The notes under the pieces are model-generated. The model saw only the letters and a program-made list of their open reading frames with translations. It was not told the DNA's origin and made no database searches. This document shows positions 17,109 to 44,127 of a DNA stretch of 64,000 nucleotides, one piece after another. Every line of letters begins with the position of its first letter. Position 1 is the stretch's first letter. Source of the DNA: an uncultured Bacilli bacterium (GTDB taxonomy: Bacteria > Bacillota_I > Bacilli_A > RF39 > UBA660); the NCBI GenBank assembly GCA_934098665.1, contig CAKOOO010000003.1, forward strand, positions 28,125 to 92,124, given 5' to 3'. The position numbers were made by a program, and so were the translations under genes.

Positions 17109-17810
17109 CTATTTTAAAAAGTAATTAATTAATACTGGACCAATTATCAAAATAAGCATAAGTGGTAAGAAAAGAAGTACTGAAACAATTGATATTTTCA
17201 TAGGCATTTTGTTAATGCTTGATTTGATATCTAAAATTCTTTTATCTGTTAAATAATTAATTTGATTAGCAAGTGCACCTTCAATACTATTACCAAATTC
17301 ATTAGCTTCTATTATATTAAGTATTACATTACAAACACTTTTTGATGGAATCTTTTTCATTAAATCCTGAAGACCCTCAGTTAAAGATTTTCCATAAGAA
17401 ACTTCCTTAAGCATTTTTTTAAATTCACTACTTATTGAACTATCTATGCTATTACATGTAATTGTTAAACAAAGTTTTAAATTTTTTTCACTTTGAATAG
17501 TAAGTGATAATACTTCGAAAAAGAATATTGAATCACTTTCAAGCTTATTTGCCCTTTTTTTAATTTTAATATCTACGAAAATATATTCATAACAAATATA
17601 AAATAATGTAGCTATTAATGGTGCTAAAAAATATCCAGAATTAAATATAAATAATACAAAAATAAATATTAATACTGTAAATATAATTCTAAAAGTTAAA
17701 AATGCATTAATATTATTTTTACTATCATAAGATAAATACATAAATTTATTTTCTAAATTTTTTATAGAATTTGTAGAATAAAAACTTTTATAAAAATCAT
17801 TTACTTTCAT
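17109..17810 (-). CDS. Type II secretion system F-family membrane protein (TadC-like)
   Basis: Polytopic, 233 aa, cytoplasmic helical domain between TM segments. Last gene of the Tad-like operon, ATGA overlap with the upstream gene. Confidence 0.65.
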   Translation of the reverse strand: MKVNDFYKSFYSTNSIKNLENKFMYLSYDSKNNINAFLTFRIIFTVLIFIFVLFIFNSGYFLAPLIATLFYICYEYIFVDIKIKKRANKLESDSIFFFEVLSLTIQSEKNLKLCLTITCNSIDSSISSEFKKMLKEVSYGKSLTEGLQDLMKKIPSKSVCNVILNIIEANEFGNSIEGALANQINYLTDKRILDIKSSINKMPMKISIVSVLLFLPLMLILIIGPVLINYFLK

Positions 17811-18817
17811 ATTTTTTCCACCTTTGTTATCTTTTTAATGATTATTACATATAAAATATAAATTATAACCATAAGTAAATCTAATATAATGCCTATCTTT
17901 GTGGTTAATAGTGGTGCAAAATAGTTTGGATTTAAGGAATATATTACTAAAATAAATATAAATGGGATAAAAATAAGTATTCTATAAAGCATTTTACTTG
18001 AACTTGTAAGTGAATTAAGTTCATTTTTAATTTTTAATTTATCATAAAAATGTTTTTCTATCATATTAAATACAGATATTATATTACCACCAGTCTTATT
18101 TAAAAGTGTAAGTGATGATGTAATATATTTAATTTCTTCAACTTTAACTCTATCATAAAATCTTTCAAATACATTAGTAAGTTCAAGTCCATAATTTAAA
18201 TCTTTTGATATAATTTCAAACTCATCTTTTATAGGACTTGATAAAGAAGTTTTAACTATATTTATTGCTTCCCATATATTTTTTCCACTTTTAAAAGCAC
18301 TATTCATAATAACAATTGCCTGTAAAAGACCACTTTCTATTGTATTACGCTTTTGTTTATAAATAATTATTAAAATAATATCTATCATAAAAAATGAAGC
18401 AAAAGCAATTATTATAAGTAAAAACATATTTATATTTATTTTCTTTAAACATGACATTAATATATATAAAAATGAAATAAAAAACATATAAAGTATTTTT
18501 AGGGAAATATAATCAATAGATTTTAAATTATTTTTTTTATTATATATCAAATATTTATCAAGTCTTTTTGAATAATTTACTAAAATAACACTTTTTGATA
18601 TAAATTTAGATATTTTTTTGATAAGTTTTAAAAATACTAATGCAAATTTATCAATAACGCTTTTTGAGGCTAAATTATTATTTTTTATATAATATTTTTG
18701 GACTCTATTTTTAAATTTAATTGCAAAGAAAAAACGCACAAATAAAACCGCTAATAAAATAAATATTACGCTTAAAATTAAAATAGTTAAAAGCTGAATT
18801 ATTTGTAATTTTTCCAT
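17807..18817 (-). CDS. Type II secretion system F-family membrane protein (TadB-like)
   Basis: Polytopic, 336 aa, same architecture as above, follows the CpaF-like ATPase. Confidence 0.65.
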   Translation of the reverse strand: MEKLQIIQLLTILILSVIFILLAVLFVRFFFAIKFKNRVQKYYIKNNNLASKSVIDKFALVFLKLIKKISKFISKSVILVNYSKRLDKYLIYNKKNNLKSIDYISLKILYMFFISFLYILMSCLKKININMFLLIIIAFASFFMIDIILIIIYKQKRNTIESGLLQAIVIMNSAFKSGKNIWEAINIVKTSLSSPIKDEFEIISKDLNYGLELTNVFERFYDRVKVEEIKYITSSLTLLNKTGGNIISVFNMIEKHFYDKLKIKNELNSLTSSSKMLYRILIFIPFIFILVIYSLNPNYFAPLLTTKIGIILDLLMVIIYILYVIIIKKITKVEKI

Positions 18818-18829
18818 TTTTTCTCCTTT

Positions 18830-20155
18830 CTATTTTTTAAAAATATTTGCTATTTCGCTAAAACCATAACTTTCAAGTCTTTTTAAACATTTAGGCATTT
18901 TTTTAGTTTGATTAAATAAACCATTTACTTCACCAGTACTTGTTATACCCTCTTGAGTAAAAGTAAATATATCATTTAAAATTATTTCATCATTTTTAAA
19001 ATCTACAACCTCGGAAATGCCACTTACTTTTCTTTTACCATCAGAAAGTCTTTCAATATTTATAACAATATTTATAGCATTATATATATATTCTCTTACT
19101 GCTTTTACAGGAATATCAATATTAGCCATTAAAACCATTGTTTCAAGTCTATGAAGAGCATCTAAATTGCCATTAGCATGAAGTGTTGTTAAACTTCCCT
19201 CATGACCAGTATTCATCGCTTGAAGCATATCAAATGCTTCCCCACCTCTTACTTCACCAATTATAATTCTATCAGGTCTCATACGAAGAGAATTTCTAAC
19301 TAAATCTCTAATAGTTATTTCACCGGTTTTTTCATAGTTTGTAGTTTTTGTTTCAAGGGTTATTACATGTGGTTGTGTAAGATTTAACTCTGCGGCATCC
19401 TCAATAGTAATAATTCTTTCTTTTTCAGGAATAAAACCACTTAAAATATTTAAAAGAGTTGTTTTACCTGAACCTGTACCGCCACATACTAAAATATTAA
19501 GTTTTGATTTAACACAAGCCTCTAGGAAAGTTGCCATATCTGATGTAAGTGAACCAATTCTAACAAGTTCTGATGCATTTGAAATATTTGCTTTAAATTT
19601 TCTAATTGTTATAACTGGCCCTTTTGTTGAAAGCGGTGGAATAACTGCATTTACCCTTGAACCATCTTTAAGTCTAGAATCTACCATTGGACTTGAGGAG
19701 TCAATAGTTCTTCCCATAGGTTCAATAAGTTTTTGAATAGTTCTTATAATATGAGCATCGTTTATAAATGAAACAGTTTCATCTTTAATTAAATTACCAT
19801 CAATTTCAATATAAATTTCATTTGGTGAATTTACCATTATTTCCGTAATATTTTCATCTTTTAATAAATCAGTTAAAGGACCATAACCATTAATTTCATT
19901 TTCAATTAAATTATATAGATAACTTCTTTGAAGTGTCGTTAAATCAATTCCTTCGGTTGCTTTATCAATTTCAACGTTAATAAAACTATCTATATTATCA
20001 TCATTTTTTAAGTTTAAATCAATAATATTTTCAACAATTTTAGTTCTTAAACTATCAAGTAAATCTTTATTTTCAAAAACATCATAATCATTAAATATAT
20101 TTTCATCATTAATCTTTTCAAAAGAAAAAACATCTTTTAAACTACTCATTTTCAT
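18830..20155 (-). CDS. CpaF/TadA-family secretion ATPase (VirB11-like)
   Basis: ILVCGGTGSGKTTLLN Walker A, RPDRIIIGEVRGGEA Walker B/Asp box, TGHEGSLTTLHAN His box. Confidence 0.9.
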   Translation of the reverse strand: MKMSSLKDVFSFEKINDENIFNDYDVFENKDLLDSLRTKIVENIIDLNLKNDDNIDSFINVEIDKATEGIDLTTLQRSYLYNLIENEINGYGPLTDLLKDENITEIMVNSPNEIYIEIDGNLIKDETVSFINDAHIIRTIQKLIEPMGRTIDSSSPMVDSRLKDGSRVNAVIPPLSTKGPVITIRKFKANISNASELVRIGSLTSDMATFLEACVKSKLNILVCGGTGSGKTTLLNILSGFIPEKERIITIEDAAELNLTQPHVITLETKTTNYEKTGEITIRDLVRNSLRMRPDRIIIGEVRGGEAFDMLQAMNTGHEGSLTTLHANGNLDALHRLETMVLMANIDIPVKAVREYIYNAINIVINIERLSDGKRKVSGISEVVDFKNDEIILNDIFTFTQEGITSTGEVNGLFNQTKKMPKCLKRLESYGFSEIANIFKK

Positions 20156-20903
20156 CCTCCATATACTTTAATAAAGAGTCAAATACTTTATAAGTTTTTG
20201 GATAATTTTTAGAAAACTTTTTATCAAGTGTAATAATTTTCCCATCAAAAATATAACTATCAATATTTTTTATAAAAAACTTACTATCTAAATGATAATC
20301 TATATTATATCCAAGCATCTTTTTTATATCATATAAACTAAAATAATTTTTATATGGATTAATACTTTCATTTAATAAAATTTTATAGTTTTTCTTATCA
20401 GCACTATCAAATATAGTAAGTAAATTATGCATATTTTTAATATTAACTAAATCATTATTCATAATAAATAAGTTTAAATCTACACTATCAAGTACTTCAA
20501 CATTATTTTCATTTAAAACGCTCATTGTATCTATAATTAAATAATCATAATAAAAAATAGACTTTTCAATTATTAAATCAATAAGTTTGCTATTTACCTT
20601 CGAAGCACTTCTTGGATCTTTTGCACTAGGTAAAAAATAAATGTTATCATTATATTTAGTTACATAATTATCTAAACTTATACTTTTATTATCAACATAA
20701 TCACTAACAAAATTTAAAAGTGTCTTTGTATAATCTTTATTTAAATAAAGTCCTATACTTCCAAAATATAAATCATAATCCACAATTAAAACTTTTTTTC
20801 CTTGCATAGCAAAAAATCCCGCGATATTTATTGCAGTTAAACTTTTTCCAGTCCCTCCTTTAGAGGAAAATAAACAAATACTTTTTCCCTTACCTTTAAT
20901 CAT
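20142..20903 (-). CDS. ParA/MinD-like ATPase (CpaE/TadZ-like, no receiver domain)
   Basis: Deviant Walker A SSKGGTGKS, VLIVDYD; sits immediately upstream of the CpaF-like ATPase. Confidence 0.75.
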   Translation of the reverse strand: MIKGKGKSICLFSSKGGTGKSLTAINIAGFFAMQGKKVLIVDYDLYFGSIGLYLNKDYTKTLLNFVSDYVDNKSISLDNYVTKYNDNIYFLPSAKDPRSASKVNSKLIDLIIEKSIFYYDYLIIDTMSVLNENNVEVLDSVDLNLFIMNNDLVNIKNMHNLLTIFDSADKKNYKILLNESINPYKNYFSLYDIKKMLGYNIDYHLDSKFFIKNIDSYIFDGKIITLDKKFSKNYPKTYKVFDSLLKYMEDENE

Positions 20904-25675: not shown

Positions 25676-26521
25676 CTAATTTTCAGTTTTTATAATAACA
25701 TTATTTGCCAATTTTTCATTTTCTCTTTGATAATTTAAGGCCATTCCAATAACAAATACATAAGCAAGGAAATAAAACCAAATCATTAAAATACAAATAT
25801 TAGCAAGCCCTCCATAAAATGATGTGTATGATGCGTAATTTAAAATGTATACTGAATATATTTCTGTAACTATAGTCCATAGTATTGTTGTAAATAGTGC
25901 TCCATAATTAGTATTATGAGATTTAATTTTTTTATCTGGAGCAAGTGTATAAATTATTTTTATTAAGAAAAACATTATTACTATCATCATCGGGCTTCTT
26001 AAATAGTCAAATACTTTAATAATTAAATTTGTTATATTTTCATTTAAGTTTACTTTCATTATAAGTGATACTATTGCTCCACCAAATACAGGTACAAGTA
26101 GTAAAAATGCAAGAAGTAAAACAAGTATAATGGATAAAACAATTGCCTTAAATCTACGTTTAAACCAGCCTTTATTTTCTATATTATAAACAGCATTAGA
26201 ACATAAAATTACAGAGTCCATACCATTACTTGCTAAATAGTAACATGTTACTATTACAATTGTAAGTCTTAAACCTGCAATAGAGCTTGTTCCTGTAGAT
26301 AGAAGTAATGATGCTACATCTTTAGAAAAAGCCTTTTGTAAAAAGTTATAAATAAAATCTACGGATAAATTAAGTATTGATGCAAGATATGTTAAAAGTG
26401 TAAGTGTTGGAACTATTGCAAGTACCATAAAAAACGCAAGTTGTCCAGGAAGAAGTTTCATATCACTTCTTCTTATTACTTTATAAAATCTTTTAAAAAA
26501 TCTTTTAATCTTTGTTTTCAT
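25676..26521 (-). CDS. YihY/BrkB-family integral membrane protein
   Basis: 281 aa, ~6 TM segments, N-terminal LPGQLAFFMVLAIVPTL motif typical of YihY. Confidence 0.7.
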   Translation of the reverse strand: MKTKIKRFFKRFYKVIRRSDMKLLPGQLAFFMVLAIVPTLTLLTYLASILNLSVDFIYNFLQKAFSKDVASLLLSTGTSSIAGLRLTIVIVTCYYLASNGMDSVILCSNAVYNIENKGWFKRRFKAIVLSIILVLLLAFLLLVPVFGGAIVSLIMKVNLNENITNLIIKVFDYLRSPMMIVIMFFLIKIIYTLAPDKKIKSHNTNYGALFTTILWTIVTEIYSVYILNYASYTSFYGGLANICILMIWFYFLAYVFVIGMALNYQRENEKLANNVIIKTEN

Positions 26522-28511
26522 TTACTTCCTTTTGTTTTTTTAATACTTTTGTAGCCTCATTTAAGGCATCTTCAATAGTTTTAATTTCATCTATTTTCAT
26601 TGAATAACCAAATTCAGCACCATATTCATATGGTAATTTTTTAAATTCTTTATTTAATTTATGAATATAATTAGTTATTTGTTTTTGATTATAACCCACT
26701 AAATATACAACAAATTCATTACCATCAGTTCTTATTATATCCGAGTTATCAAGTTGAGTTCTTATAAGTACATTGGCAGCAGCTTTTATTTGTTTATCCC
26801 CTTCTTCATAACCTTTTGTATCATTAATTTGTTGGATATGATTTAAATCAATTACAAGTATTGTCTGTGGATAAATCGTATTATTATTCCAAATATTAAG
26901 ATTTTCTGATAAATAATTACGATTTTTAAGAAGAGTTAATTGATCTATAAAACGCATTTTATCATCTTTTTTAATTTTTTTAGCAATAGTTATTTTTTTA
27001 GTTTTTCTAATAACAACATATGCTATTACTAAAAATGCTATTAAAAAGTAAATAAAATATTTTGCAAGTAGTGATAAAACCCTACCATATTTAACAGTTT
27101 CACTATGATTATTAATACCTTCATTTAATATTTTATGACTATCCACTATTGTTATATATTTATTTAATAATTTATATAGAGTATTATTTTCCTTTAATCT
27201 AAAGTTATATACTTCATTTAACTTGCCACTTGTTCTTATTGTATAATTTTCAAGACCATGAGTTTTATAATATTCATATATGTTACTATCCACTAAAATA
27301 ATGACATCTTTATTATTAAGTTTAGTCATTTCTTTACTGGTTTTATAGGTTTTAACATTAACATTTAAACTTTTTAAATATGAATATAAAAGTGAATTAT
27401 TTTGTACATATACTTCTTTGTTTTCAAGAGCATTAATACTATTTATAACAATATCATTTTTAATATTAGCAACTATAACATAATTTACATCTACTCCACT
27501 TTGTGTTTTATAATATTCATCTAAATTATAATATCCAAAATAAGCATCTATTTCTTTATTAGTTATTGCTTTATTAAATTTTGCAAAATTACTATATTTT
27601 TTAAATGTAAAATCAGTCCCAGAAAAAGACATAAAATTTTTCAGATAAACTGCTACAATACCACCATAATTACCACCAGAAATAACTTCATATGGAGAAT
27701 TATTTACATAGCCATATTTATAACTAACAGAACGCATTTCATCAATTTGCATATCAGTTAAATTTAAACTTTTAGATACAATATTAAATAAATTGGTATT
27801 ATAACTTTCATCAAAATTTTCTTTCCATGTATCTAAATATTTTCTTAATATAGAACCTATTTCGTTATTTTCAGTAGTAAGTACATAATAAATATCTATA
27901 TCACTAAAATGATAAATAATTTCTTTATTACTACTTAAAATATTATTTAAATATAAATGAAGTGGCACTATAGCATATTTATTTTCCTCAAAAGAAGACA
28001 TTAAATCATCAATATTATCATAAGTAGAATAACTTAAATTATAATTAGTTAAATATTTTGTAACATTTTTGCTATCACTAGATAAAATTGATATAGTACC
28101 CTTTATATCAAAAGGACTTGATATAATTTCATAACTATTTGATATTAATACATAGTGATCAGTATATATAACATTATCACTTTCATTAATTTCATTTTTT
28201 ACATTTAAACTTGTACCAATTACATTTGCTCCATTATTAAAGGTAACTTTATTAATATTTAAATTATATTCATTTTCAAAAGATGATAAAAAATCATAAA
28301 ATACTCCACTACCAGAGTCACCAAAAACGGCACTATTATTTAAAACGTTTACATTAATTAGTGTAGATGTTTGACTATTTTCATCTATCCATTTTTTTTC
28401 AGCAACAGTAAGTTTATTTGTTTTTAGATACATTATTATTCCAAATACTACTCCCGCTATGAAAAGACAAAGAAAAGTGCATAAAAGCACTATTTTATTT
28501 TTCTTCTTCAT
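26505..28511 (-). CDS. Membrane sensor protein with extracytoplasmic domain and a degenerate GGDEF domain
   Basis: TM, ~450-aa external domain, TM, then VIDLNHIQQINDTKGYEEGD...RTDGNEFVVYL. This is the GGDEF fold, but the signature reads DGNEF. Confidence 0.7.
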   Translation of the reverse strand: MKKKNKIVLLCTFLCLFIAGVVFGIIMYLKTNKLTVAEKKWIDENSQTSTLINVNVLNNSAVFGDSGSGVFYDFLSSFENEYNLNINKVTFNNGANVIGTSLNVKNEINESDNVIYTDHYVLISNSYEIISSPFDIKGTISILSSDSKNVTKYLTNYNLSYSTYDNIDDLMSSFEENKYAIVPLHLYLNNILSSNKEIIYHFSDIDIYYVLTTENNEIGSILRKYLDTWKENFDESYNTNLFNIVSKSLNLTDMQIDEMRSVSYKYGYVNNSPYEVISGGNYGGIVAVYLKNFMSFSGTDFTFKKYSNFAKFNKAITNKEIDAYFGYYNLDEYYKTQSGVDVNYVIVANIKNDIVINSINALENKEVYVQNNSLLYSYLKSLNVNVKTYKTSKEMTKLNNKDVIILVDSNIYEYYKTHGLENYTIRTSGKLNEVYNFRLKENNTLYKLLNKYITIVDSHKILNEGINNHSETVKYGRVLSLLAKYFIYFLIAFLVIAYVVIRKTKKITIAKKIKKDDKMRFIDQLTLLKNRNYLSENLNIWNNNTIYPQTILVIDLNHIQQINDTKGYEEGDKQIKAAANVLIRTQLDNSDIIRTDGNEFVVYLVGYNQKQITNYIHKLNKEFKKLPYEYGAEFGYSMKIDEIKTIEDALNEATKVLKKQKEVNENKD

Positions 28512-28971
28512 TTTCTTCCTCTTTTATAGGTGTATTATTATTCCATGATATTTTTTCAGAGGCAACATTTTTAGATGCCATTATCGTAAAATTATCACTA
28601 GATAAAATAAATTGTAAATCATAATAAGATAAAATATCTTCGGAAAATAAACTTAAATTATCTTCTACTAATTTTTTAGCATTATCTAAACTAATATTTT
28701 CATCAAATTTAATATTTACATAAATAATTCTACCTTTTGTATTAAATTCTACACTCTTTACACTTTCATTTGCTAAAAGTGTTTCTTTATAATTTGATTT
28801 AAGTTCACTAGATATTGGATGTTTCTCAATACCATTTAACCTATTCCCATATTCATTAGTATCCTTTGAATAAAAGAATGTTAGAGCAACAGAGCATATA
28901 GCAATAAAACATACTATAAGTATTATTACTAAAACAAAAACCACCCTATTACTTTTCCATAATTTTTTCAT
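28495..28971 (-). CDS. Membrane-anchored hypothetical protein
   Basis: 158 aa, single N-terminal TM segment (VVFVLVIILIVCFIAICSVALTFF), overlaps the downstream GGDEF gene by 17 nt. Confidence 0.5.
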   Translation of the reverse strand: MKKLWKSNRVVFVLVIILIVCFIAICSVALTFFYSKDTNEYGNRLNGIEKHPISSELKSNYKETLLANESVKSVEFNTKGRIIYVNIKFDENISLDNAKKLVEDNLSLFSEDILSYYDLQFILSSDNFTIMASKNVASEKISWNNNTPIKEEENEEEK

Positions 28972-29074: not shown

Positions 29075-30811
29075 TTAACTTCCCACTACATATGGATTAT
29101 TCCATGTACCATTGCCAGAAAGATTAGCATCTTTTGATATTGAGATAACTGGTCGAACGCCTAAAGCCGTTCTATCCGGGGTCGAATCAGAAATTTTTCC
29201 CGATGAAGTTGTATAAAAAGTGTACCCATAATCTTCGTAAAAACCATAAGGTGACATAGACCAATAGTCTTGATTTGTATATAAATAATAATTTGTATTA
29301 TCACTTTTGGGATTTCCACCTGCCATTAACAATTCATCGGCTGTTATTAAACCAACAGGATATGTTAATGCACCATTTCCAAACTCACTTTCATCATTTA
29401 AAATTATTTTATTTACCGTAAACATATCACTTTTTTCAGAACATATTAAACTAGGTGCAGTACCTTTACTCAAATAACCCAAATTCAATCTATTAGCTGG
29501 ATAATAGTAACCAAATTCTGCATAGTTGTATTTTTCCCATAAACCAGCATCCCTATCATTACAATAAATTGCATCTACCACTATTGATGAATCTGTACTT
29601 ACTAATGAAGTTGATGAATACCAACTATCCAAAGCCTGTTTAATTTTACTATTATTAACAGTATTTCCATCTATAGTACAGTTTTCATTTTGTGAGTCAC
29701 ATTTTCCATAACCATATTGTTGATCCGATATGTATTGATATCCAACACAAGCCGTTGTTTCGCAAGAATTATTATATACTGTAGTTGTTGCTTGCGTACC
29801 ATCTCCTGTCATAATAACTTTTTGATTTTCGATTGGTGCGGTTGTTCCTGTATATATCAGTCTTACACTACCATCGCCATTTATTCTAATTATTCGCCAA
29901 TACATATCATTATTTGAATTATCTTTACCAAATTTTACCCAGTTATTATCTACGGCACCTCGAAAATAATATGATGTTCCAAAATTATCTTCAGATAAAT
30001 AAAGTCCTTCATTTAATGTTGCGATATTATCAAAATTAGGCTTTTCTGCATTTAAATTATTATTTGATAGCAATTTTTTTCCTATAGTGCCTGGGATATC
30101 CAAGGCAATTATATCACAATTTTTATTTGATACATATATTTTACCAGTAAATCCTTTTTCAGAAAGTTGACCTTGAAATACATCTAAATTATAATATTTT
30201 CCTGTAATTGTCCATTTTTGTTCAGTTTCTTTTGTAGCACTATTATTATTGATTATTGCATTACTTACAAGGACTCTTTTTGCTCCAACTGAATTGGTAG
30301 TATCTTTTGCTGTCCATGAACTATCATAATTAAAGTTTTTTTCTTCATTATAGTTATTTGTTCCTGTACTTGGTCCTGATACTTGCATGGTTATTTCTTT
30401 AGTAACAGTTGTATTAGTTTCCTCATTCTTAGATACATAAGTAACATCATCACCATATATATACGAATTATAATCATACTCATATACTATATCATAAGTA
30501 CATGAAACTAATTGATTATCATCACCTGATATTAAGTTTACTGAAAGTGTAGCTGTATTTTCTGCAATAGCATTTACAGTACTATTATTAGAACGTTCCA
30601 TTGCTGCACCACTAACTTGTATATTTAGTTGGGTTGCATTTGATGTAAAAACAACATTTCCTCCAGATAATGCTGTCACATTTACTGCAACATTATTGGT
30701 AAGACCAGCACTCATATCACTAAAATATGCAAATGCTGCCGCTATAACAATAACAAAAAGCATCATTGCTGATACAAAACTTATTACTTTAACTTTCTTT
30801 TTATTTTCCAT
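29075..30811 (-). CDS. Secreted/surface protein, long-form paralogue A (578 aa)
   Basis: N-terminal anchor/signal MENKKKVKVISFVSAMMLFVIVIAAAFAYFSD. Shared motifs YYFRGAVDNNWV, YWRIIRINGDGSVRLIYTGTTAP, YPVGLITADE, YYLYT, YWSMSP, GVRPVISIS, GTWNNPY. Confidence 0.8.
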   Translation of the reverse strand: MENKKKVKVISFVSAMMLFVIVIAAAFAYFSDMSAGLTNNVAVNVTALSGGNVVFTSNATQLNIQVSGAAMERSNNSTVNAIAENTATLSVNLISGDDNQLVSCTYDIVYEYDYNSYIYGDDVTYVSKNEETNTTVTKEITMQVSGPSTGTNNYNEEKNFNYDSSWTAKDTTNSVGAKRVLVSNAIINNNSATKETEQKWTITGKYYNLDVFQGQLSEKGFTGKIYVSNKNCDIIALDIPGTIGKKLLSNNNLNAEKPNFDNIATLNEGLYLSEDNFGTSYYFRGAVDNNWVKFGKDNSNNDMYWRIIRINGDGSVRLIYTGTTAPIENQKVIMTGDGTQATTTVYNNSCETTACVGYQYISDQQYGYGKCDSQNENCTIDGNTVNNSKIKQALDSWYSSTSLVSTDSSIVVDAIYCNDRDAGLWEKYNYAEFGYYYPANRLNLGYLSKGTAPSLICSEKSDMFTVNKIILNDESEFGNGALTYPVGLITADELLMAGGNPKSDNTNYYLYTNQDYWSMSPYGFYEDYGYTFYTTSSGKISDSTPDRTALGVRPVISISKDANLSGNGTWNNPYVVGS

Positions 30812-30897: not shown

Positions 30898-31033
30898 TTT
30901 TCTTAAATTAGATACTTTTAAAAAAACTCTACCTTGATTTTACATACTTTACACTAAAATAATACACTATTTTTTATAATTTTTAAAGTCTTTTTAACGA
31001 TTTTACGTTTTCATTTTTTTTAAATGTATCTAC
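30898..31033. promoter_or_regulatory. Switch copy 1: promoter cassette between inverted sites, promoter facing gene A; sites partly eroded
   Basis: Left site: TTTTCTTAAA-TTAGATACT-TTTAAAAAAA (30898-30926). Right site: TTTTTTTAAA-TGTATCTAC (31015-31033). IR 30909-30926 / 31015-31032 matches 17 of 18. Minus-strand promoter: TTTAAA (30987..30982), 17-nt spacer, TATTAT (30964..30959). Confidence 0.6.
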
Positions 31034-31111
31034 ACGAAAAATGTAAACACTGGGGAAAATAGAAAATTCATGTAATTTTTTTAAATTTAAACTTTTTTTA
31101 TTTTTTATGTA

Positions 31112-31141
31112 AAATAAAAAAAAGAGCAAGATATACTTGCT
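31112..31141 (-). terminator. Terminator of paralogue B
   Basis: Stem AGCAAG (31125-31130) / CTTGCT (31136-31141), with the minus-strand U-run corresponding to the A-run at 31112-31123. Confidence 0.55.
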
Positions 31142-32910
31142 TAACTTAAATCCACTGTATACGGATTATTCCATGTGCCATCGCCAGATAATTTTGCCTC
31201 AGAGGATAGAGAAATTACACTACGGACGCCATCATTGACACTAGGAAACACACGATTACTAGACAGATAACCCGAATAATTTACAATGAAAACATTACTA
31301 TAATTAGCATAGAAATTGTAAGGCGACCCAGACCAATAACTTTGCCCTGTATATAAGTAATATGAACTGTTGCTAGTTTTATATCCTCCTGCCATATTTA
31401 TCTCATCAGCAGTTATTAAACCTACTGGATAAGAAAGTGTTCCGTTTGCTACACTATATTTATCTAATTCATTTTCGCATTTTAAACTTGGAGTCCAACT
31501 ATTATTATTTCCATATGTTCTTCCATTACTGCCATAATATGTTGCTCTGTTTGATATCCAACTACTTATTTCACCATATATACCTGTTTCACTTATTGAT
31601 GCTGTCCTATCATAACAAAATGGAGTATCTACTACTAATTTTGATGTTGCTGCATCCGCATATAGCGTTGTTATTTTATACCAATTTTCAAGTGTTGTCT
31701 TTATTATACTATCATTTGCTAGACCATGTTGTTTTCCTATCTCATATTTATATCCGACATATTCAGCTTTATTCATTTCATTATTAAATTTAATTGCATT
31801 TATTTGTGTACCTGTTCCAGTCATAACGCTCTTTTGACTTTCTGTTGGTGCTGTTGTTCCTGTATACAGGAGTCTTATTGACCCATCACCATTAATTCTT
31901 ACTATTCGCCAGTAAATTTTATCTCCATTTGATGCTATTTTAGTGCATGAATTTCCAGTATCAATTGTTGATATAGTGCCATAATTACAATCATATATAT
32001 CATTTGCATATTCACCATATTGTACCCAGTTATTATCTACTGCTCCTCTAAAATAGTAAGATAAGCCTTGGTCATCCATTGTCATATACATTCCTTCATT
32101 TGTTGTTGCACTATTTGTAAATACTGGAGTACCTTTTGATTTTATTACATCAATACCACCATTTTTTGCTAGTATTGTATTTCCAGCGGTACCAATATTG
32201 TTTGTTCCTATTGCACAATTTTTATTTGATACATATATTTTGCCTGTAAAGGCTTGATTAGAAAGCTGTGTTTGAAATATATTTAGGTTATAGTATTTAC
32301 CAGTAAATGTCCAATTTTGTGTTGTTTGCTCTGTTGAACTCATATTTGATATACCTGCATTACTTACAAGTACTTTTTTTGCTCCCACTAAATTTGTTGT
32401 ATCTTTTGCTGTCCATGAACTATCATAATTAAAGTTTTTTTCTTCATTATAGTTATTTGTGCCAATACTTGGTCCCGATACTTGCATTGTTATCTCTTTT
32501 GTTACGTTTGCACCCGTATCTCCATCTTTTGTTACATATGTTGTGCCATCGCCATATACATTTGAATTATAATCATATTCATATACTATATCATAAGTAC
32601 ATTTAACTAACTGATTATCGTCACCTGATATTAAATTAACTGATAAAGTTGCAGTATTTTCTGCAATAGCTGTTTCATTATTTGCAAATGATGAGTCCAT
32701 ACTACTTGAAGGCACGTTTATACTTAACTGGGTTGCATTGGATGAAAATACTGAGTCACCACCCTCTAAAGCGGTTACATTAACTGCTACATTATTTGCA
32801 AGACCTGCACTCATATTACTAAAATAAGCAAATGCTGCCGCTACCACAATTACAAATAGCATCATTGCTGATACAAAACTTATTACTTTAACTTTCTTTT
32901 TATTTTCCAT
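31141..32910 (-). CDS. Secreted/surface protein, long-form paralogue B (589 aa)
   Basis: The first ~230 aa are near-identical to paralogue A (MENKKKVKVISFVSAMMLFVIVVAAAFAYFSN...). The middle is diverged. The C-terminal motifs are shared: YYFRGAVDNNWV, YWRIVRINGDGSIRLLYTGTTAP, YPVGLITADE, GVRSVISLS, GTWNNPY. Confidence 0.8.
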   Translation of the reverse strand: MENKKKVKVISFVSAMMLFVIVVAAAFAYFSNMSAGLANNVAVNVTALEGGDSVFSSNATQLSINVPSSSMDSSFANNETAIAENTATLSVNLISGDDNQLVKCTYDIVYEYDYNSNVYGDGTTYVTKDGDTGANVTKEITMQVSGPSIGTNNYNEEKNFNYDSSWTAKDTTNLVGAKKVLVSNAGISNMSSTEQTTQNWTFTGKYYNLNIFQTQLSNQAFTGKIYVSNKNCAIGTNNIGTAGNTILAKNGGIDVIKSKGTPVFTNSATTNEGMYMTMDDQGLSYYFRGAVDNNWVQYGEYANDIYDCNYGTISTIDTGNSCTKIASNGDKIYWRIVRINGDGSIRLLYTGTTAPTESQKSVMTGTGTQINAIKFNNEMNKAEYVGYKYEIGKQHGLANDSIIKTTLENWYKITTLYADAATSKLVVDTPFCYDRTASISETGIYGEISSWISNRATYYGSNGRTYGNNNSWTPSLKCENELDKYSVANGTLSYPVGLITADEINMAGGYKTSNSSYYLYTGQSYWSGSPYNFYANYSNVFIVNYSGYLSSNRVFPSVNDGVRSVISLSSEAKLSGDGTWNNPYTVDLS

Positions 32911-32997
32911 AACAATTCACCCTTTCAAAAAATACGAACATTTAAAATTTTTTTAGAAAATTAAATTTTAAATTTTCCGCATAAGTACGCCATATAA

Positions 32998-33144
32998 TTT
33001 TCTTAAATTAGATACTTTTAAGAAAACTCTACCTTGATTTTACGTACTTTACACTAAAATAATACACCTTTTTTTATAATTTTTAAAGCATTTTTAACGA
33101 TTTTACGCTTTCGTATTTTCTTAAAAGTATCTACTAAAGGAAAA
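32998..33144. promoter_or_regulatory. Switch copy 2: promoter cassette between inverted recombinase-type sites, promoter facing gene B
   Basis: Left site: TTTTCTTAAA-TTAGATACT-TTTAAGAAAA (32998-33026). Right site: TTTTCTTAAA-AGTATCTAC-TAAAGGAAAA (33116-33144). Perfect 18-bp IR 33009-33026 / 33116-33133 around an 89-bp core. Minus-strand promoter: TTTAAA (33087..33082), 17-nt spacer, TATTAT (33064..33059). Confidence 0.75.
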
Positions 33145-33252
33145 TACGAACAAGGTAAACACTGGGAAAAATAGGAAATTTATGTACTTTTTTTATTTAT
33201 AAATTTTTTATTTTTTATGTAAAGTTTATGTAAAATAAAAAAGATTAATGAG

Positions 33253-36101: not shown

Positions 36102-38198
36102 TTACATCACCTTCCTAATTCCTTTATAATTTTTTAAAAACTTTTTAGTACCAAATCTATGATGAAATGCAATTGTAATAAATTTATCATCTATATCTAT
36201 TATAACACCTTTTCCAAAAGTTAAATGTGTAACTATATCACCTTTTTTAAACTCTGCAGTATTTTTACTATTTTCCTCATCATATAATAGTTTAGATTTA
36301 ATACTATGCATTTCTTTTCTTTCTTCTTCTTTATCAAGTAAATTATCACTTATTTCACTTATAAATCTACTTGGAAGATTCATTTGAATAGAGCCATAAA
36401 GCATTCTTCTTGTGGCATTTAAAAGATAAAGTTTTTCTTTTGCTCTTGTTATTGCAACATACATAAGTCTTCTTTCTTCCTCAAGGTCGCCTTCATCATA
36501 AAGTGCTTTTGATATTGGCATAATATTTTCCTCAAGGCCTATAATAAAAACAACTTTAAATTCAAGACCTTTTGCACAGTGTACTGTCATAAGAGTAACT
36601 GCATCACTATCTTCTGAGTACTCTGCAGCATCAGCTACAAGTGATACATCCATTAAAAAGTCAGATAAATTTACATTTCCCGTTTCTTTTTCATAAGTTT
36701 CAGAAACACTTCGAAATTCCATTAAGTTTTCAAGTCTAATATCACTTTCAAGTGATTTATCATTTTCATAAGTTTCTTTCATTTTAGAAAGTTCTAATGT
36801 TTTATCTATTAAACCAGTTATTGAAGTATCTTTACTAATTTCTATTAAATTTAATATTAAATTTTTAAATTCAAGTTCTTTTCCACTATCTATTGCATCG
36901 AATATTGAAATATTATTAACTCTTGCTTTTTCTTTTAAAGCATCAATTGTTTTATCACCAATTTTTCTTTTTGGTTCATTTATAATCCTTTCTAAAGAAA
37001 CATCATCACTTGGATTAGCTATAAGTTTTAAATATGCTAGTAAATCTTTAATTTCTTTTCTTTTATAAAAGTAAAATGAGCCATATACTTTATATGGTAT
37101 ATTTGCTTTAACAAGTGCTTCTTCGATTAAACGTGACTGAGCATTTGTTCTATAAAATACAGCAATATCCTTTCTATTATAACCTTCATTTACTAAATTT
37201 TTTATTTCTTCGACTACTCTTTTATTTTCCATTTCATCGTTATATGCTCTAATATATTTAATATTTACACCTTTTCCTAAATCTGAAAATAAATCTAAAT
37301 CTTTTCTTTGTTTATTATGAGATATTACTTCATTTGCGGCATCAAGTATGGTTTGCGTACTACGATAATTTTGGGGAAGTTTTATTACCGTGCATCCATT
37401 AAAATCTTTTTCAAAATTTAAAATATTTTGAAAATTTGCTCCCCTGAAAGCATAAATTGACTGTGATGGATCTCCAACTACAAAAAGATTTAAATATTTT
37501 TTAGATAAAAGTTTTACAAGTTTATACTGCACTTCATTAGTATCTTGATATTCATCAATTAAAATATATTTAAATCTTTCTTGATACTTTGAAAGTACAT
37601 CTTTATTACTATTAAAAATTTCTACAGGTTTTTTTAGTAAATCATCAAAATCAAGAGTGTTATTTCTTTTTAAAATTTTCTCATATTCATAATATACTTT
37701 AACGGCAATTTTTTCATTTTCGGCAATTAAAAAATTAGCTATTTCACTATCAGAAAGCATATTATTTTTTATAAAGGAAATCTTACTTTTTATAAATGCT
37801 GGACTTACCATTTTATCTGTGATATTTATATCTTTCATTATTTTTTTTATAATACTTGTTTGATCTTCAGTATCTATTAAAGTAAATGTGCTTGTTAAGC
37901 CAAAAAAAGAAGTATTTTCTCTTATAATTTTAAGACCAAATGAATGAAATGTACCTATAAAAGCTCCACTTGCATTTATTAATTTATTAACTCTTTCACG
38001 CATTTCTCCTGCAGCTTTATTAGTAAATGTTATTGCTAAAATATTATATGGATCTATTCCACTATCAATTAAACTAGCAATTCTTGTCGTAAGTACTTTT
38101 GTTTTTCCTGAACCTGCTCCAGCGATGACTAAACATGGGCCATCCTTAAATGTAGCTGCCTTTCTTTGCATTTCATTAAGTTTTTCTAAATAGTCCAT
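36102..38198 (-). CDS. pcrA: ATP-dependent DNA helicase PcrA (UvrD family)
   Basis: AGAGSGKTKVLT Walker A, IDEYQDTN, QNYRST, VTLMTVHCAKGLEF, YVAITRAKE motifs. Confidence 0.95.
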   Translation of the reverse strand: MDYLEKLNEMQRKAATFKDGPCLVIAGAGSGKTKVLTTRIASLIDSGIDPYNILAITFTNKAAGEMRERVNKLINASGAFIGTFHSFGLKIIRENTSFFGLTSTFTLIDTEDQTSIIKKIMKDINITDKMVSPAFIKSKISFIKNNMLSDSEIANFLIAENEKIAVKVYYEYEKILKRNNTLDFDDLLKKPVEIFNSNKDVLSKYQERFKYILIDEYQDTNEVQYKLVKLLSKKYLNLFVVGDPSQSIYAFRGANFQNILNFEKDFNGCTVIKLPQNYRSTQTILDAANEVISHNKQRKDLDLFSDLGKGVNIKYIRAYNDEMENKRVVEEIKNLVNEGYNRKDIAVFYRTNAQSRLIEEALVKANIPYKVYGSFYFYKRKEIKDLLAYLKLIANPSDDVSLERIINEPKRKIGDKTIDALKEKARVNNISIFDAIDSGKELEFKNLILNLIEISKDTSITGLIDKTLELSKMKETYENDKSLESDIRLENLMEFRSVSETYEKETGNVNLSDFLMDVSLVADAAEYSEDSDAVTLMTVHCAKGLEFKVVFIIGLEENIMPISKALYDEGDLEEERRLMYVAITRAKEKLYLLNATRRMLYGSIQMNLPSRFISEISDNLLDKEEERKEMHSIKSKLLYDEENSKNTAEFKKGDIVTHLTFGKGVIIDIDDKFITIAFHHRFGTKKFLKNYKGIRKVM

Positions 38199-41149: not shown

Positions 41150-41164
41150 AATACCTCCTACAAA

Positions 41165-41290
41165 AAAATTCCTTTAAAAAATAATTTAGGGACGAATATT
41201 TATCCGCGGTTCCACCCTAATTATTCCTAAAGGAATCACTTTTATTATTTTAGCTCTTGGTTTCCAACCCCGTCATCGCTATAACAATTA
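41165..41290 (-). promoter_or_regulatory. T-box leader (tRNA-sensing antitermination riboswitch) upstream of glyQS-proS
   Basis: The minus strand contains AATTAGGGTGGAACCGCGG (plus 41204-41222), the T-box consensus. The terminator helix ATTCCTTTAGGAATAATTAGGG / CCCTAAATTATTTTTTAAAGGAAT is followed by a U-run. An upstream AGCGATGA GA-motif is present. Confidence 0.7.
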
Positions 41291-41444
41291 TAATATTTTT
41301 TTTTATAAAATACAATAAAATTGTTGCATTTTATAAATTTATTTAGTATAATAACACTCGTTAGTCAAAAAAGACTATCAAATTAGGAAAGTATTTTATT
41401 TAAAAAGGTCACTATTTGTGGCCTTTTTAATTGTATTTATATAT

Positions 41445-42533
41445 TTACATCCCTATTCTATAAGGATCTACTTGCGTACCTGTTCCACTTACTACATATA
41501 CATTTGGTTTTAGATAAAGGACTGGTCTAGTTGCATAACTCACATTTGCAACATTACTAGATAAGCATCCATTAGAAATCCATAATTGGATGGTATCACT
41601 ATAAGCACCAATTAACCACTCATTTTCACACATGAAAAGCCAATTTTTTTGTGTGTACTGTTCAATGGTACCCCCATAACCAATTATGCCTGAATATCCT
41701 TCAACTGCATATCCAAAGTCGCTTGCGTACATTAAGCCTATTTTAGATAATGAAGATGAATATCTACTTATTTCCAAATCATATTGGTCATCAGCTGTAT
41801 GAAATGCTTTATCACCAAAGCCAATATAATAATAAACATTTTCAACCATTTTGCCATAATTACTATCTTCATCAATACCAATTAAAGAGTAATTACACAT
41901 ACCTATTGCGTCAGTTCCTGCATAACAATAATCATCACATGATGATGTTTTTCCTAAATAACATTTATTTAATAAATTTTGAATATTAGTATTTAACCAA
42001 GTAAATTGATTTGTAGTACTAAACATATTTTTATCATATAGGAAACTACCAATAATATCATTTCTTATTAGTTTTACTCTATTTTCAGTTGATGCACATC
42101 CACTTGTTAAACATACTGGTACGTTTCCGATTATTCTCCATAGTTCATCATTAAACCATACATAATTATCTGGATTTTTCCCTTGATATCTTATTCCATG
42201 TGTTGTACTTGCACCTTTACTATCAACTACATCACTTAAATTACTAGCATTTGAATTAAATGAAATATCACATGTTACTGTTCCTTTTATTTTTGTTATT
42301 TCTAGTTTCCATGTTTTAGGGTTCCATACTCCTTTTCCATTTTCACAATTAACAGTTACATTATATTTACCACTTGCTGGAAAAGATGTTGCACTATTTC
42401 CATCAACAGTTAATGCAATAATACTTCCATTGTAATTAAATGTTTTAATGCTTTTACTACTTATAACTATAAGTAAAGTAACACTTATTATTATAAATAT
42501 ACTACATACTATTATTTTTTTATTATATTTCAT
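41445..42533 (-). CDS. Secreted/surface protein, short-form paralogue D (362 aa)
   Basis: N-terminal TM/signal. STTHGIRYQGKNPDNYVWFNDELWRIIGNVPVCLTSGCASTENRVKLIRNDI is near-identical to paralogue C. C-terminal ATRPVLYLKPNVYVVSGTGTQVDPY. Starts 27 nt after the stop of C (operon). Confidence 0.75.
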   Translation of the reverse strand: MKYNKKIIVCSIFIIISVTLLIVISSKSIKTFNYNGSIIALTVDGNSATSFPASGKYNVTVNCENGKGVWNPKTWKLEITKIKGTVTCDISFNSNASNLSDVVDSKGASTTHGIRYQGKNPDNYVWFNDELWRIIGNVPVCLTSGCASTENRVKLIRNDIIGSFLYDKNMFSTTNQFTWLNTNIQNLLNKCYLGKTSSCDDYCYAGTDAIGMCNYSLIGIDEDSNYGKMVENVYYYIGFGDKAFHTADDQYDLEISRYSSSLSKIGLMYASDFGYAVEGYSGIIGYGGTIEQYTQKNWLFMCENEWLIGAYSDTIQLWISNGCLSSNVANVSYATRPVLYLKPNVYVVSGTGTQVDPYRIGM

Positions 42534-42560: not shown

Positions 42561-43874
42561 TTAAAGATTTAAAATGTAAGGATTAGTTTGAGAACCATCA
42601 CCACTTGTAACGTAAACTTGCGACTTTAGAAAAATTGTTGGTCTTACAAAATAACCATCGAAAGATTTATTTCCATATATCCAGCCATAACTTATAAAAA
42701 ATGGCCAAGAGGAAGAAATAGTCATAGTCCACTCCATACCCGTTTTATATAGCCAATTTTGATTACAGTATCCTTGCGGATTATTAATACGACCTAGTCC
42801 ACTACTAAATCCTTTAAACGCATAGCCAAAATCACTTACATACATTATGCCAACTTTTCTCGCTACAGTATCTATACTAGATTTTTCATAATTATAATGT
42901 TCGTCAGCAGTATGTGCTGAATCATCACCAACCATAGCATTTGGATTACTTTCTATTCCAGCATAGTAAAAAACATCTTCTATCATGTTTCCGTAAAAAT
43001 CTGAAGCATCTATACCAATAAGAGAATAATCACAATTACCCACAATGCTTGTACCTTTTATATAACAATAATTATCACAACTACTTTTTTTACCTAAATA
43101 ACAACCATTTAATAATTTTTGAATATTACTATCACTCCATGTTGTACTAGAATCACTAAATTTATAGGCACCTAAAATATCATTTCTTATTAGTTTTACT
43201 CTATTTTCAGTTGATGAACATCCACTTGTTAAACATACTGGTATGTTTCCAATTATTCTCCATAGCTCATCATTATACCAAACATAGTTATTTGGGTCTG
43301 TTCCTTGATATCTTATTCCATGTGTTGTACTTGTTCCATTATTATTTACTATAGTTGTAAGAAGCTCACTACTTGATGGTGTTTTTTGGGTAAATTCTAT
43401 ATCACATTTTACAAAATCATTCCAATTTGATACTTCTATACCATTTAATTTATTATTCCAAATAGTACTATTTGTTCCTTTACAATTTGTAACACTTTTT
43501 GTATAACCTGATAATAAATATGAAGGAGTTTCTATATTCATTTTTATGTCAGAAATTACTTCATAATACATATAAACTGTACATCTATCAGAGCCTAATG
43601 TTTGATATGATAATTTATTTCCTACTATATCAACTGTTCCACCATTTTCACAAAATGTTTTATCTGTATCTATATGATAATTTGTTAAATCACTTGGAAT
43701 AGAATTTGCATTTGTATAATCAGCTTCTCCATCACCTTTTATCATAATAGCATAAGATTTTTTGATAATTAATTTATCATTATTAAGTGTATTTTTCTTA
43801 TCATTATAGATAATTATGGTAATTAAAAATGCTACTAACAAAAATACGAACAACATTATTTTTTTTCTTTTCAT
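42561..43874 (-). CDS. Secreted/surface protein, short-form paralogue C (437 aa)
   Basis: N-terminal TM/signal MKRKKIMLFVFLLVAFLITIIIY. STTHGIRYQGTDPNNYVWYNDELWRIIGNIPVCLTSGCSSTENRVKLIRNDI. C-terminal FVRPTIFLKSQVYVTSGDGSQTNPY. Confidence 0.75.
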   Translation of the reverse strand: MKRKKIMLFVFLLVAFLITIIIYNDKKNTLNNDKLIIKKSYAIMIKGDGEADYTNANSIPSDLTNYHIDTDKTFCENGGTVDIVGNKLSYQTLGSDRCTVYMYYEVISDIKMNIETPSYLLSGYTKSVTNCKGTNSTIWNNKLNGIEVSNWNDFVKCDIEFTQKTPSSSELLTTIVNNNGTSTTHGIRYQGTDPNNYVWYNDELWRIIGNIPVCLTSGCSSTENRVKLIRNDILGAYKFSDSSTTWSDSNIQKLLNGCYLGKKSSCDNYCYIKGTSIVGNCDYSLIGIDASDFYGNMIEDVFYYAGIESNPNAMVGDDSAHTADEHYNYEKSSIDTVARKVGIMYVSDFGYAFKGFSSGLGRINNPQGYCNQNWLYKTGMEWTMTISSSWPFFISYGWIYGNKSFDGYFVRPTIFLKSQVYVTSGDGSQTNPYILNL

Positions 43875-43909
43875 AAGCGCCTCTTTTTCCGCATAAGTAC
43901 GCCATTGAG

Positions 43910-44056
43910 TTTTCTTATATTAGGTAGATTTAAGAAAATTACATAACGTAAAATCGTTATTTTGACTTTAAAAATTATAAAAAATAATGTATAATTTAAT
44001 AGTAAGGTACGTAAATACGAGGTAGAATTTTCTTAAATCTACCTACTTTAGGAAAA
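43910..44056. promoter_or_regulatory. Switch copy 3: same cassette as copies 1-2 but with the core reverse-complemented (promoter facing away from the C-D operon)
   Basis: Left site: TTTTCTTATA-TTAGGTAGA-TTTAAGAAAA (43910-43938). Right site: TTTTCTTAAA-TCTACCTAC-TTTAGGAAAA (44028-44056). Perfect 20-bp IR 43921-43940 / 44026-44045 around an 85-bp core. The promoter is on the plus strand: TTTAAA (43967-43972), 17-nt spacer, TATAAT (43990-43995). Confidence 0.8.
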
Positions 44057-44076
44057 TACGAACAAGGTAAATACTA

Positions 44077-44127
44077 AGAAAAATAAAAATAAGATTAATT
44101 TTTAAAAAAATCTTATTTTTTCTTTTG
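44077..44127. terminator. Bidirectional terminator straddling the stop codon of 44102..45307
   Basis: 9-bp stem AATAAGATT (44088-44096) / AATCTTATT (44109-44117), with T-runs on both strands. Confidence 0.55.

Follow-up and report, generated by a model that had tools for sequence, protein, structure and literature searches.

Invertible promoter cassettes upstream of predicted surface-protein genes in an uncultured gut member of the Bacilli, most likely flipped in trans by a tyrosine recombinase

Introduction

The DNA described here is a stretch of 64,000 nucleotides from an uncultured Bacilli bacterium (contig CAKOOO010000003.1 of assembly GCA_934098665.1, positions 28,125 to 92,124) and is called the window throughout. 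Three of its intergenic regions, termed copies 1, 2 and 3, contain a short cassette with a promoter-like element in front of genes for predicted surface proteins. The subject of this report is copy 3, upstream of the operon at 42561-43874 and 41445-42533. Its region is read, with a probability of roughly 0.85, as one of at least three portable invertible-promoter cassettes in the window, flipped by a trans-acting and most likely tyrosine recombinase, with one orientation (A) being ON and the other (B) OFF.

According to the mechanism proposed, a recombinase encoded elsewhere in the genome would exchange strands within the matched overlaps of two recombination sites, and the core between them would flip. 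In orientation A a sigma-70-type promoter would read through the gene-proximal site into the surface-protein gene or genes downstream. In orientation B the same promoter would read outward into a hairpin, and the genes would be left without a recognisable promoter. In the present assembly copy 3, with its operon, is in orientation B, and copies 2 and 1 are in orientation A.

Core orientation in the window

A first-pass annotation, made from the sequence alone, had reported that the core of copy 3 matches the other two copies only as its reverse complement, between flanks that are colinear. All of its coordinates and sequences for the three intergenic regions were recovered on re-reading. The gene-proximal flank contains the 19-mer TTCCGCATAAGTACGCCAT at 32975-32993 and 43887-43905, and the distal flank the 21-mer GGAAAATACGAACAAGGTAAA at 33139-33159 and 44051-44071, in copies 2 and 3, respectively. 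The annotation had named an equally good forward match as the outcome that would speak against it, and the alignment was computed. The core of copy 3 (43941-44025) scores 41.5 against the core of copy 2 (33027-33115) as reverse complement, with 68 of 90 columns identical, and 2.5 in the forward direction. Shuffled sequences (500 shuffles) gave a mean of -2.0, a standard deviation of 3.5 and a maximum of 8.5. Against the core of copy 1 the scores are 48.5 as reverse complement and 3.5 forward. Cores 1 and 2 are colinear with each other and identical at 81 of 89 positions. When core 3 is flipped in silico, the 216-nt region with its flanks aligns with copy 2 from end to end (172/221). The core strings TTTTTTATAATTTTTAAAG and TAACGATTTTACG occur three times each in the window, on the plus strand in copies 1 and 2 and on the minus strand in copy 3.

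The copy 3 cassette (43910-44056) consists of two recombination sites and the invertible core, and stands in orientation B, in which the promoter-like element points away from the operon. The core between the inner arms is 89 bp long (43939-44027), contains no open reading frame (ORF), and includes the inversion-variable block 43941-44025. It is bounded by a perfect 20-bp inverted repeat at 43921-43940 and 44026-44045, as had been described, and the repeat extends to 31 nt at 90% identity (43910-43940 / 44026-44056). Perfect inverted repeats of at least 16 nt with a spacing of 40-300 nt are found within the 64-kb window only at copies 2 and 3 (8 seed pairs in two clusters, whereas 30 Markov simulations averaged 0.4 pairs). 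The initial description of bounding repeats for copy 3 has to be widened, as copies 1 and 2 are bounded by inverted repeats as well. The copy 2 cassette (32998-33144, core 33027-33115, overlap TAGATAC) is in orientation A with the promoter toward the gene. The copy 1 cassette (30898-31045) is also in orientation A, and its inner inverted repeat is 18 nt long at 94% identity. Both have the same architecture as copy 3, the distal outer arm of copy 1 excepted.

Inversion in natural populations

Copy 2 was found in both orientations in one strain. The window and contig L051 (ERZ27287474) are identical over 4178 nt except for 33027-33115, which is the exact reverse complement in L051 and is bounded there by an 18-nt perfect inverted repeat. 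The block is flipped in the same way in L052 (ERZ28614471), and both contigs encode a 589-amino-acid (aa) protein identical to that of the window. A homologue in a related species, here called the P0077 locus, is represented by ten independent contigs, five in each orientation. A single P0077 pair, L004 and L006, was aligned base by base: over 1600 nt the two differ only in a block of 89 nt, which is an exact reverse complement and lies between 20-nt inverted repeats. Across 33 assemblies with conserved flanks, the related-species cassette is in orientation A in 15 and in orientation B in 18. As in other invertons, a short segment lies between inverted repeats and both of its orientations occur in natural populations. 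These sequence comparisons prove inversion in nature for copy 2 of the strain and for homologous cassettes in relatives, and they support the earlier view of a DNA-inversion switch with copy 3 in the state opposite to copies 1 and 2. That copy 3 itself is still switching would follow by extrapolation from its intact sites and from the relatives.

Genome and metagenome collections were scanned with the pattern GTTCGTATTTTCCT-N12-TTTAAGAAAA, which is not part of the inverted block and finds cassettes in either orientation; 37 loci were added in this way. Cassettes with the spacer type TCTTATACA were in orientation A 12 times and in orientation B 11 times, and those with TCTTAAACA three and seven times. 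For the spacer type of copy 3 the counts were one (L040) and seven, for TTATATAGA zero and six, and for the spacer type of copy 2 one (the window) and one (L039, a relative). Orientation B is thus the commoner one overall in these tallies. Both orientations recur across samples and across assembler naming styles (NODE_, k127_, k141_, JGI). The core pattern ATAATTTTTAAAG-N6-TAACGATTTTACG had no match in the genome-collection contigs, and the species is apparently absent among the GTDB representatives.

Recombination sites and probable recombinase class

Each boundary of a cassette is a small palindromic site of the form TTTTCTTAAA-N9-TTTAAGAAAA, in which the first and last bases of the spacer are nearly constant. 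For this reason the site is best read as two 11-bp arms around a 7-bp overlap, 29 bp in all. This 11-7-11 geometry, with the arm consensus ATTTTCTTAAAT, is lox- or dif-like, and the paired sites are inverted within the cassette. The gene-proximal site of copy 3 (43910-43938) reads TTTTCTTATA-TTAGGTAGA-TTTAAGAAAA and has the overlap TAGGTAG. The distal site (44028-44056) reads TTTTCTTAAA-TCTACCTAC-TTTAGGAAAA and carries the proximal overlap in reverse-complemented form.

Seven distinct 7-bp overlaps, corresponding to eight 9-bp spacer types, were observed: TAGGTAG, CTTATAC, CTTAAAC, TATAAAC, TATATAG, CTTATAG and TAGATAC. All seven are non-palindromic, the arms are conserved across cassettes, and the overlap is identical, in inverted form, at both sites of every cassette. 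Between close relatives a compensatory double change has taken place, from CTTATAC/GTATAAG to CTTAAAC/GTTTAAG (Mycoplasma sp. CAG:472). The outermost spacer base (G at the distal site, T at the proximal site) is not moved on inversion, so the crossover lies inside it. The length of the core between the inner arms is constant at 89-90 bp in all cassette types (window and L001-L050) despite sequence divergence, which suggests that the loop, very small at about 118 bp, is under a geometric, length or phasing constraint. A role of the overlaps as locus-specific address codes that insulate the cassettes from one another is not claimed, as copies 1 and 2 share TAGATAC and a cassette in contig L044 shares the overlap of copy 3.

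Tyrosine recombinases (Cre/loxP, Flp/FRT, XerCD/dif, lambda Int) exchange strands by a mechanism that requires matched overlaps in the two partner sites. The sites described here have the features of a tyrosine-recombinase core site: inverted arms surround an asymmetric overlap within the range of 6-8 bp, and the partner overlaps are identical. The recombinase most likely belongs to this class, because the overlap is free to vary between loci, is strictly identical between partner sites, and gives a site of odd length. An Mpi-like or Hin-like serine invertase is a rather improbable substitute. It gains some plausibility from the absence of a recombinase gene among the sequences searched, and from Mpi of Bacteroides, which flips many short promoter segments in trans (PMC2268961, PMC11602134). 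A 29-bp site of odd symmetry with a single central base misfits, however, the centred 2-bp stagger of such enzymes, and seven central bases that vary between loci yet match between partners are more than a serine enzyme needs. In addition, a jackhmmer search with Escherichia coli queries against 659 ORFs (at least 80 aa, from the window and related loci) yielded no homologue of PinE, nor of FimB or FimE.

Promoter-like element and probable direction of the switch

The promoter-like elements and their directions are as originally described. In copy 3, TTTAAA-17-TATAAT (43967-43995, plus strand) reads away from the 437-aa gene. The element is TTTAAA-17-TATTAT in the other two copies and reads toward the gene in both, that is toward the 589-aa gene in copy 2 (33059-33087, minus strand) and toward the 578-aa gene in copy 1 (30959-30987, minus strand). 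The element of copy 3 is the best sigma-70 match of its intergenic region (10/12), in which no match faces the gene. When 13 cassettes of different types were normalised to one state, the -35 hexamer, the 17-bp spacing and the -10 hexamer were at the same position in all of them and pointed toward the gene in orientation A. The -35 variants are TTTAAA, TTGAAA and TAGTAA; the -10 variants are TATAAT, TATTAT, TTTAAT and TAAAAT, with a conserved TG before the -10. The assignment of ON and OFF rests on this positional conservation, not on sigma-70 scoring.

Distal to the copy 3 switch only about 45 bp remain, which form a hairpin and contain no gene-facing promoter, so that an external promoter is unlikely. 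The hairpin (44079-44126) is located at the 3' end of a 401-aa gene and has runs of A and T. A bidirectional terminator had been proposed at this place; a hairpin does exist, but it consists of A/U pairs only and was not called by the terminator scan. The hairpin may act as a weak terminator in both directions, in which case outward transcription would end there. At the P0077-type loci (L005:2255-2370, minus strand, and others) a hairpin followed by U7 (z = -4.5) stands just distal to the switch. Its stem includes G.U pairs, from which it follows that it would terminate outward (antisense) transcription only, and such a terminator makes sense only if the promoter fires outward in state B. This terminator is arranged back to back with the terminator of topA.

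Copy 1 provides a further indication of polarity. In its distal site (31015-31050) the outer arm is deleted or degraded at about 31033-31045, the sequence being GTTTACATTTTTCGT / GTAGATACA vs GTTCGTATTTTCCTTTA / GTAGATACT in copy 2. The three assemblies of the strain have an identical copy 1 cassette, in orientation A each time, and the gene behind it is intact. Because of the damaged arm and the constant orientation, copy 1 is probably locked, not switchable, in the promoter-toward-gene state; together with the intact gene this fits a lock in ON. The greater overall frequency of orientation B is what would be expected of antigens that are mostly OFF.

Orientation A is taken as ON and orientation B as OFF because the element is conserved, there is no room for an external promoter, the P0077 loci carry an outward terminator, copy 1 appears locked in A, and B is the commoner orientation. 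Copy 3 would then probably be OFF, as the first-pass annotation had it. That assignment draws support from the conserved position of the sole intergenic promoter-like element, which faces away from the operon, and the state itself is deduced from sequence only. The window would have copy 1 ON (locked), copy 2 ON and copy 3 OFF, and the corresponding states in L051 would be ON, OFF and OFF.

Contrary evidence and alternative readings

Several findings weigh against the reading given above. A recombinase gene was found neither in the window nor in about 440 kb of related flanks: Pfam detected none on 46 of the 56 window ORFs of at least 100 aa, a search with motif regular expressions detected none on ORFs of at least 120 aa from the about 440 kb of loci, and none was found within 10 kb on either side of the P0077 locus. 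From this it follows that the enzyme would have to act in trans. All 8 contigs of the species that span copy 3, which come from about seven samples, show it in orientation B. Promoter-like matches are no commoner than in shuffles of DNA with 25% GC, and a simple sigma-70 score fails to separate the two directions in every cassette type. The hairpin distal to copy 3 has no G-C pairs.

The constant orientation of copy 3 would agree with a fixed relic, in which the core no longer leaves B and the operon is either silent or transcribed by read-through from upstream, and the related L020-type cassette is likewise in B in 6 of 6 cases. Such a relic is unlikely all the same. All four arms of copy 3 and its perfect 20-bp repeat with the matched overlap are intact, unlike those of copy 1; both genes of the operon are intact and conserved (97% in L003); and a cassette with the same spacer is in orientation A in L040. 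Moreover, an assembly shows the majority state only, and populations in which most cells are OFF are usual for phase-variable antigens.

A switch that is real but of reversed polarity, or one that does not act through a promoter, is very unlikely. Either state B would express the genes, or the core would carry an orientation-dependent terminator or leader as in cwpV of Clostridioides difficile. The greater frequency of B could be read in this sense, AT-rich DNA gives promoter-like matches on both strands, and a TATAAT in the B direction is found inside the conserved TTTTTTATAAT. That -10 has no conserved -35, however, whereas the -35, the 17-bp spacing and the -10 of the A direction are fixed in all cassette types. 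The hairpin of about 45 bp beyond copy 3 leaves no space for an external promoter, the terminator of the P0077 loci is outward-only, the probably locked copy 1 is in A with an intact gene, and no orientation-specific terminator was predicted.

A number of contigs end inside a cassette or at its edge (L002, L035, L040, L044, L046, L049, L062, L063). Such ends fit mixed populations, in which case the cassettes would explain the contig breaks at these loci; paralogous repeats could also be the cause. Inverted repeats can confuse assembly graphs, and some contigs do break at the cassette, but random flipping by assemblers is a negligible prospect: the perfect repeats of 18-20 nt are shorter than the k-mers given in contig names (k127, k141) or typical of SPAdes-style NODE contigs (for NODE_ contigs k is assumed from typical SPAdes settings), so each orientation needs junction-spanning reads, both states occur in many samples and under several assembler naming styles, and the inverted blocks are exact with no other differences.

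Conserved flanks and further cassettes

The conserved distal flank (44051-44071, minus strand) is outside the inversion, overlaps the outer arm and holds the string TGTTCGTATTTT at 44053-44064. A second copy of TGTTCGTATTTT is located 212 bp downstream of it, at 43841-43852 (minus strand), where it falls within codons 8-11 of the 437-aa gene. Within the window the string occurs only at the cassettes (44053-64 and 43841-52; 33141-52 and 32929-40; 30830-41). The pair is a direct repeat on one strand, with its members exactly 212 bp apart and flanking the switch. The downstream member is coding in copy 3 and belongs to the 5' untranslated region in copies 1 and 2. In sequence TGTTCGTATTTT resembles a recombinase arm (TTCGTATTTTTTGAAA vs TTCGTATTTTCTTAAA). 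The conserved proximal flank (43887-43905, minus strand) contains GGCGTACTTATGCGG (43889-43903, and 32977-32991 in copy 2). The P0077 orthologue has its true start codon at the ATG of this flank; in the window copies that ATG opens only an upstream ORF of 4-7 codons (seven codons in copy 3). The TGTTCGTATTTT repeat and the GGCGTACTTATGCGG ATG, a start codon in the P0077 orthologue but not here, suggest that different genes acquired the switch along with the 5' end of an ancestral gene, the two having moved as one module.

A more far-reaching interpretation goes beyond a bare inverton and is offered as a speculation with a rather low chance of being right. The unit would be a portable module of ~270 bp, made up of the distal flank, two lox-like sites, a core of fixed length and the ancestral 5' end, placed before unrelated surface genes. 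The TGTTCGTATTTT repeat might serve as an accessory recombinase-binding site that biases the direction of switching. Alternatively, the OFF state might produce an outward, terminated RNA of ~100 nt, a conserved part of which (AAAAUACGAACAA) is complementary to the 5' regions of mRNAs of the family and might silence paralogues in trans. A search of Rfam gave no known RNA in the cassettes or leaders.

A further cassette with the spacer of copy 3 was found in a 98%-identical strain (L044:1-106), about 1.7 kb to the left of window position 1; the contig ends inside the core. As this cassette is outside the window, the genome would hold more than three of them. Tandem genes, each with a cassette of its own, are present in L020 (245-393 and 2574-2722), in which the neighbouring cassettes differ in overlap, and in L039 (3855-4003 and about 5591-5785), in which the second cassette is known as a BLAST match only. 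At the P0077 locus no second cassette is present in the 350-bp gap between the two genes.

Comparison with known systems

The closest analogue, in its way of working and not by homology, is the mpl family of Mycoplasma penetrans. As summarised in PMC2268961, each of the mpl (P35) lipoprotein genes has its own invertible promoter and trans-acting tyrosine recombinases are involved (Horino et al. 2003); candidate recombinases were proposed in that account to act in trans. In both cases paralogous surface genes at separate loci stand behind short invertible promoters of their own that would switch independently, the recombinase is outside the cassette, and the genome is low in GC. The three window cassettes precede genes at three loci, and further cassettes are present in relatives. 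Unlike in the mpl family, the sites found here are 29 bp long and lox-like with 11-7-11 geometry, and their overlaps differ between loci. The host differs as well, being a spore-forming gut member of the Bacilli and not a true mycoplasma, and its proteins are N-terminally anchored without a known family.

The RecV-dependent switches of C. difficile (cwpV, flgB, cmr and others) are short invertible elements of about 150-200 bp with imperfect inverted repeats, and RecV is a single tyrosine recombinase encoded away from the surface and motility switches on which it acts. They resemble the present system in belonging to a Firmicute and in comprising several short invertible elements upstream of surface genes. 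The difference from cwpV is that cwpV works via a terminator in the leader, whereas here the predicted promoter is inside the segment; no fixed gene-facing promoter distal to copy 3 and no orientation-specific terminator were found. The inverted repeats of C. difficile are not known to share the arm consensus described here.

The fimS switch of E. coli is 314 bp long, has 9-bp inverted repeats, and is adjacent to the genes for its tyrosine recombinases, FimB and FimE. The cassettes would have in common with it a promoter in a short invertible segment and ON/OFF control of a surface structure, and they likewise have inverted repeats with flanking half-sites. The segment described here is shorter, with about 118 bp between the crossover centres, and no FimB/FimE-like ORF was found nearby by jackhmmer. 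Minimal tyrosine-recombinase sites have the geometry 13-8-13 in loxP and FRT and 11-6-11 in dif. Like them, the cassette sites have inverted arms around a short asymmetric overlap that is matched between partners, and the orientation of the overlap sets the outcome. Unlike them, they are 11-7-11, have imperfect outer arms, and are accompanied by extra conserved flanks and an arm-like direct repeat. In the Hin/Gin/Pin systems the invertase gene lies in or beside the segment, and the 26-bp sites have a 2-bp core and act with an enhancer. Here the core is without an ORF, no PinE-like protein was found, and the site has 29 bp and odd symmetry.

Invertible promoters of Bacteroides are under the control of Mpi or Tsr recombinases and figure in catalogues of gut invertons (PMC8748976, PMC11602134, PMC11892184). 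They are similar in occurring in gut commensals, in placing many promoter invertons on surface architecture, in depending on recombinases that act globally and in trans, as would be the case here, and in being visible as orientation polymorphism in metagenomes. They differ in phylum and in repeat consensus, and Mpi is a serine recombinase, in contrast to the tyrosine-type site geometry found here.

The principle is already known: invertible promoters before surface genes are widely catalogued, and ON/OFF phase variation is an ordinary mechanism. The new details are the lineage itself, the consensus of the arms, their 11-7-11 geometry and the proteins under control. On this reading, promoter inversion at several loci would vary the surface of a human-gut Bacilli lineage that is uncultured and very AT-rich. 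The 11-7-11 grammar is unusually clean, and the pattern ATTTTCTTAAAT-N7-ATTTAAGAAAAT could be used to find all such switches in metagenomes and, by co-occurrence, the recombinase. The finding also marks the uncharacterised Cys-rich anchored proteins as likely antigens exposed to the host or to phages.

Controlled genes and host

All controlled genes are on the minus strand. Downstream of copy 3 are the gene for a Cys-rich protein of 437 aa with an N-terminal membrane anchor (42561-43874) and, after 27 bp, the gene for a paralogue of 362 aa (41445-42533) that is 46% identical to it. Copy 2 precedes the gene for a membrane-anchored protein of 589 aa (31141-32910), and copy 1 the gene for a protein of 578 aa (29075-30811), which is 56% identical to the 589-aa protein. 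An N-terminal hydrophobic anchor is present in all four proteins. The initial assignment of all of them to one surface-protein family is weak, since the 437/362-aa pair and the 589/578-aa pair have in common just a C-terminal motif of about 50 aa (E = 7e-4). Identity between the P0077 orthologue and the 437-aa protein is 52%. No Pfam or NCBIfam family was assigned to the controlled proteins, and no sequence match was found in the PDB. An AlphaFold model of a controlled protein was poor (mean predicted local distance difference test score, pLDDT, of 58). A C-type lectin-like fold was the top match in Foldseek, with all E values above 1, and was not trusted as meaningful.

The host DNA has a GC content of about 25%. 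It encodes CotE, YqfD, MurB, MurG, FtsQ and Tad-type secretion genes, which indicate a walled, spore-forming Firmicute. Identical or near-identical contigs originate from human-gut metagenomes, Hadza samples among them. The relatives recovered with the cassette belong to a different species, and their genomes were submitted under names such as 'Mycoplasma sp. CAG:472', 'uncultured Mycoplasma sp. MGYG-HGUT-04242' or 'uncultured Bacilli bacterium'.

The copy 1 gene is followed, after a gap of 103 bp and on the same strand (25676-28971, minus), by a 158-aa ORF and by genes for a 668-aa GGDEF diguanylate cyclase and a BrkB-like protein. Judging from this arrangement, the three could be co-transcribed with the copy 1 gene. 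A Tad/type-II-secretion-like cluster (17109-20903, minus strand) contains genes for a ParA-like ATPase, T2SSE and two T2SSF proteins. It adjoins cotE (16500-17039) and has no cassette upstream. Inside a UvrD/PcrA helicase gene, at 36412-36509 (minus strand), the Rfam family RF03531 ('C. difficile sRNA included into helicase gene') scores above its gathering threshold. A T-box-like leader of glycyl-tRNA synthetase, scoring below the Rfam gathering threshold, is located at about 41160-41300 (minus strand) and contains GGGTGGAACCGCG.

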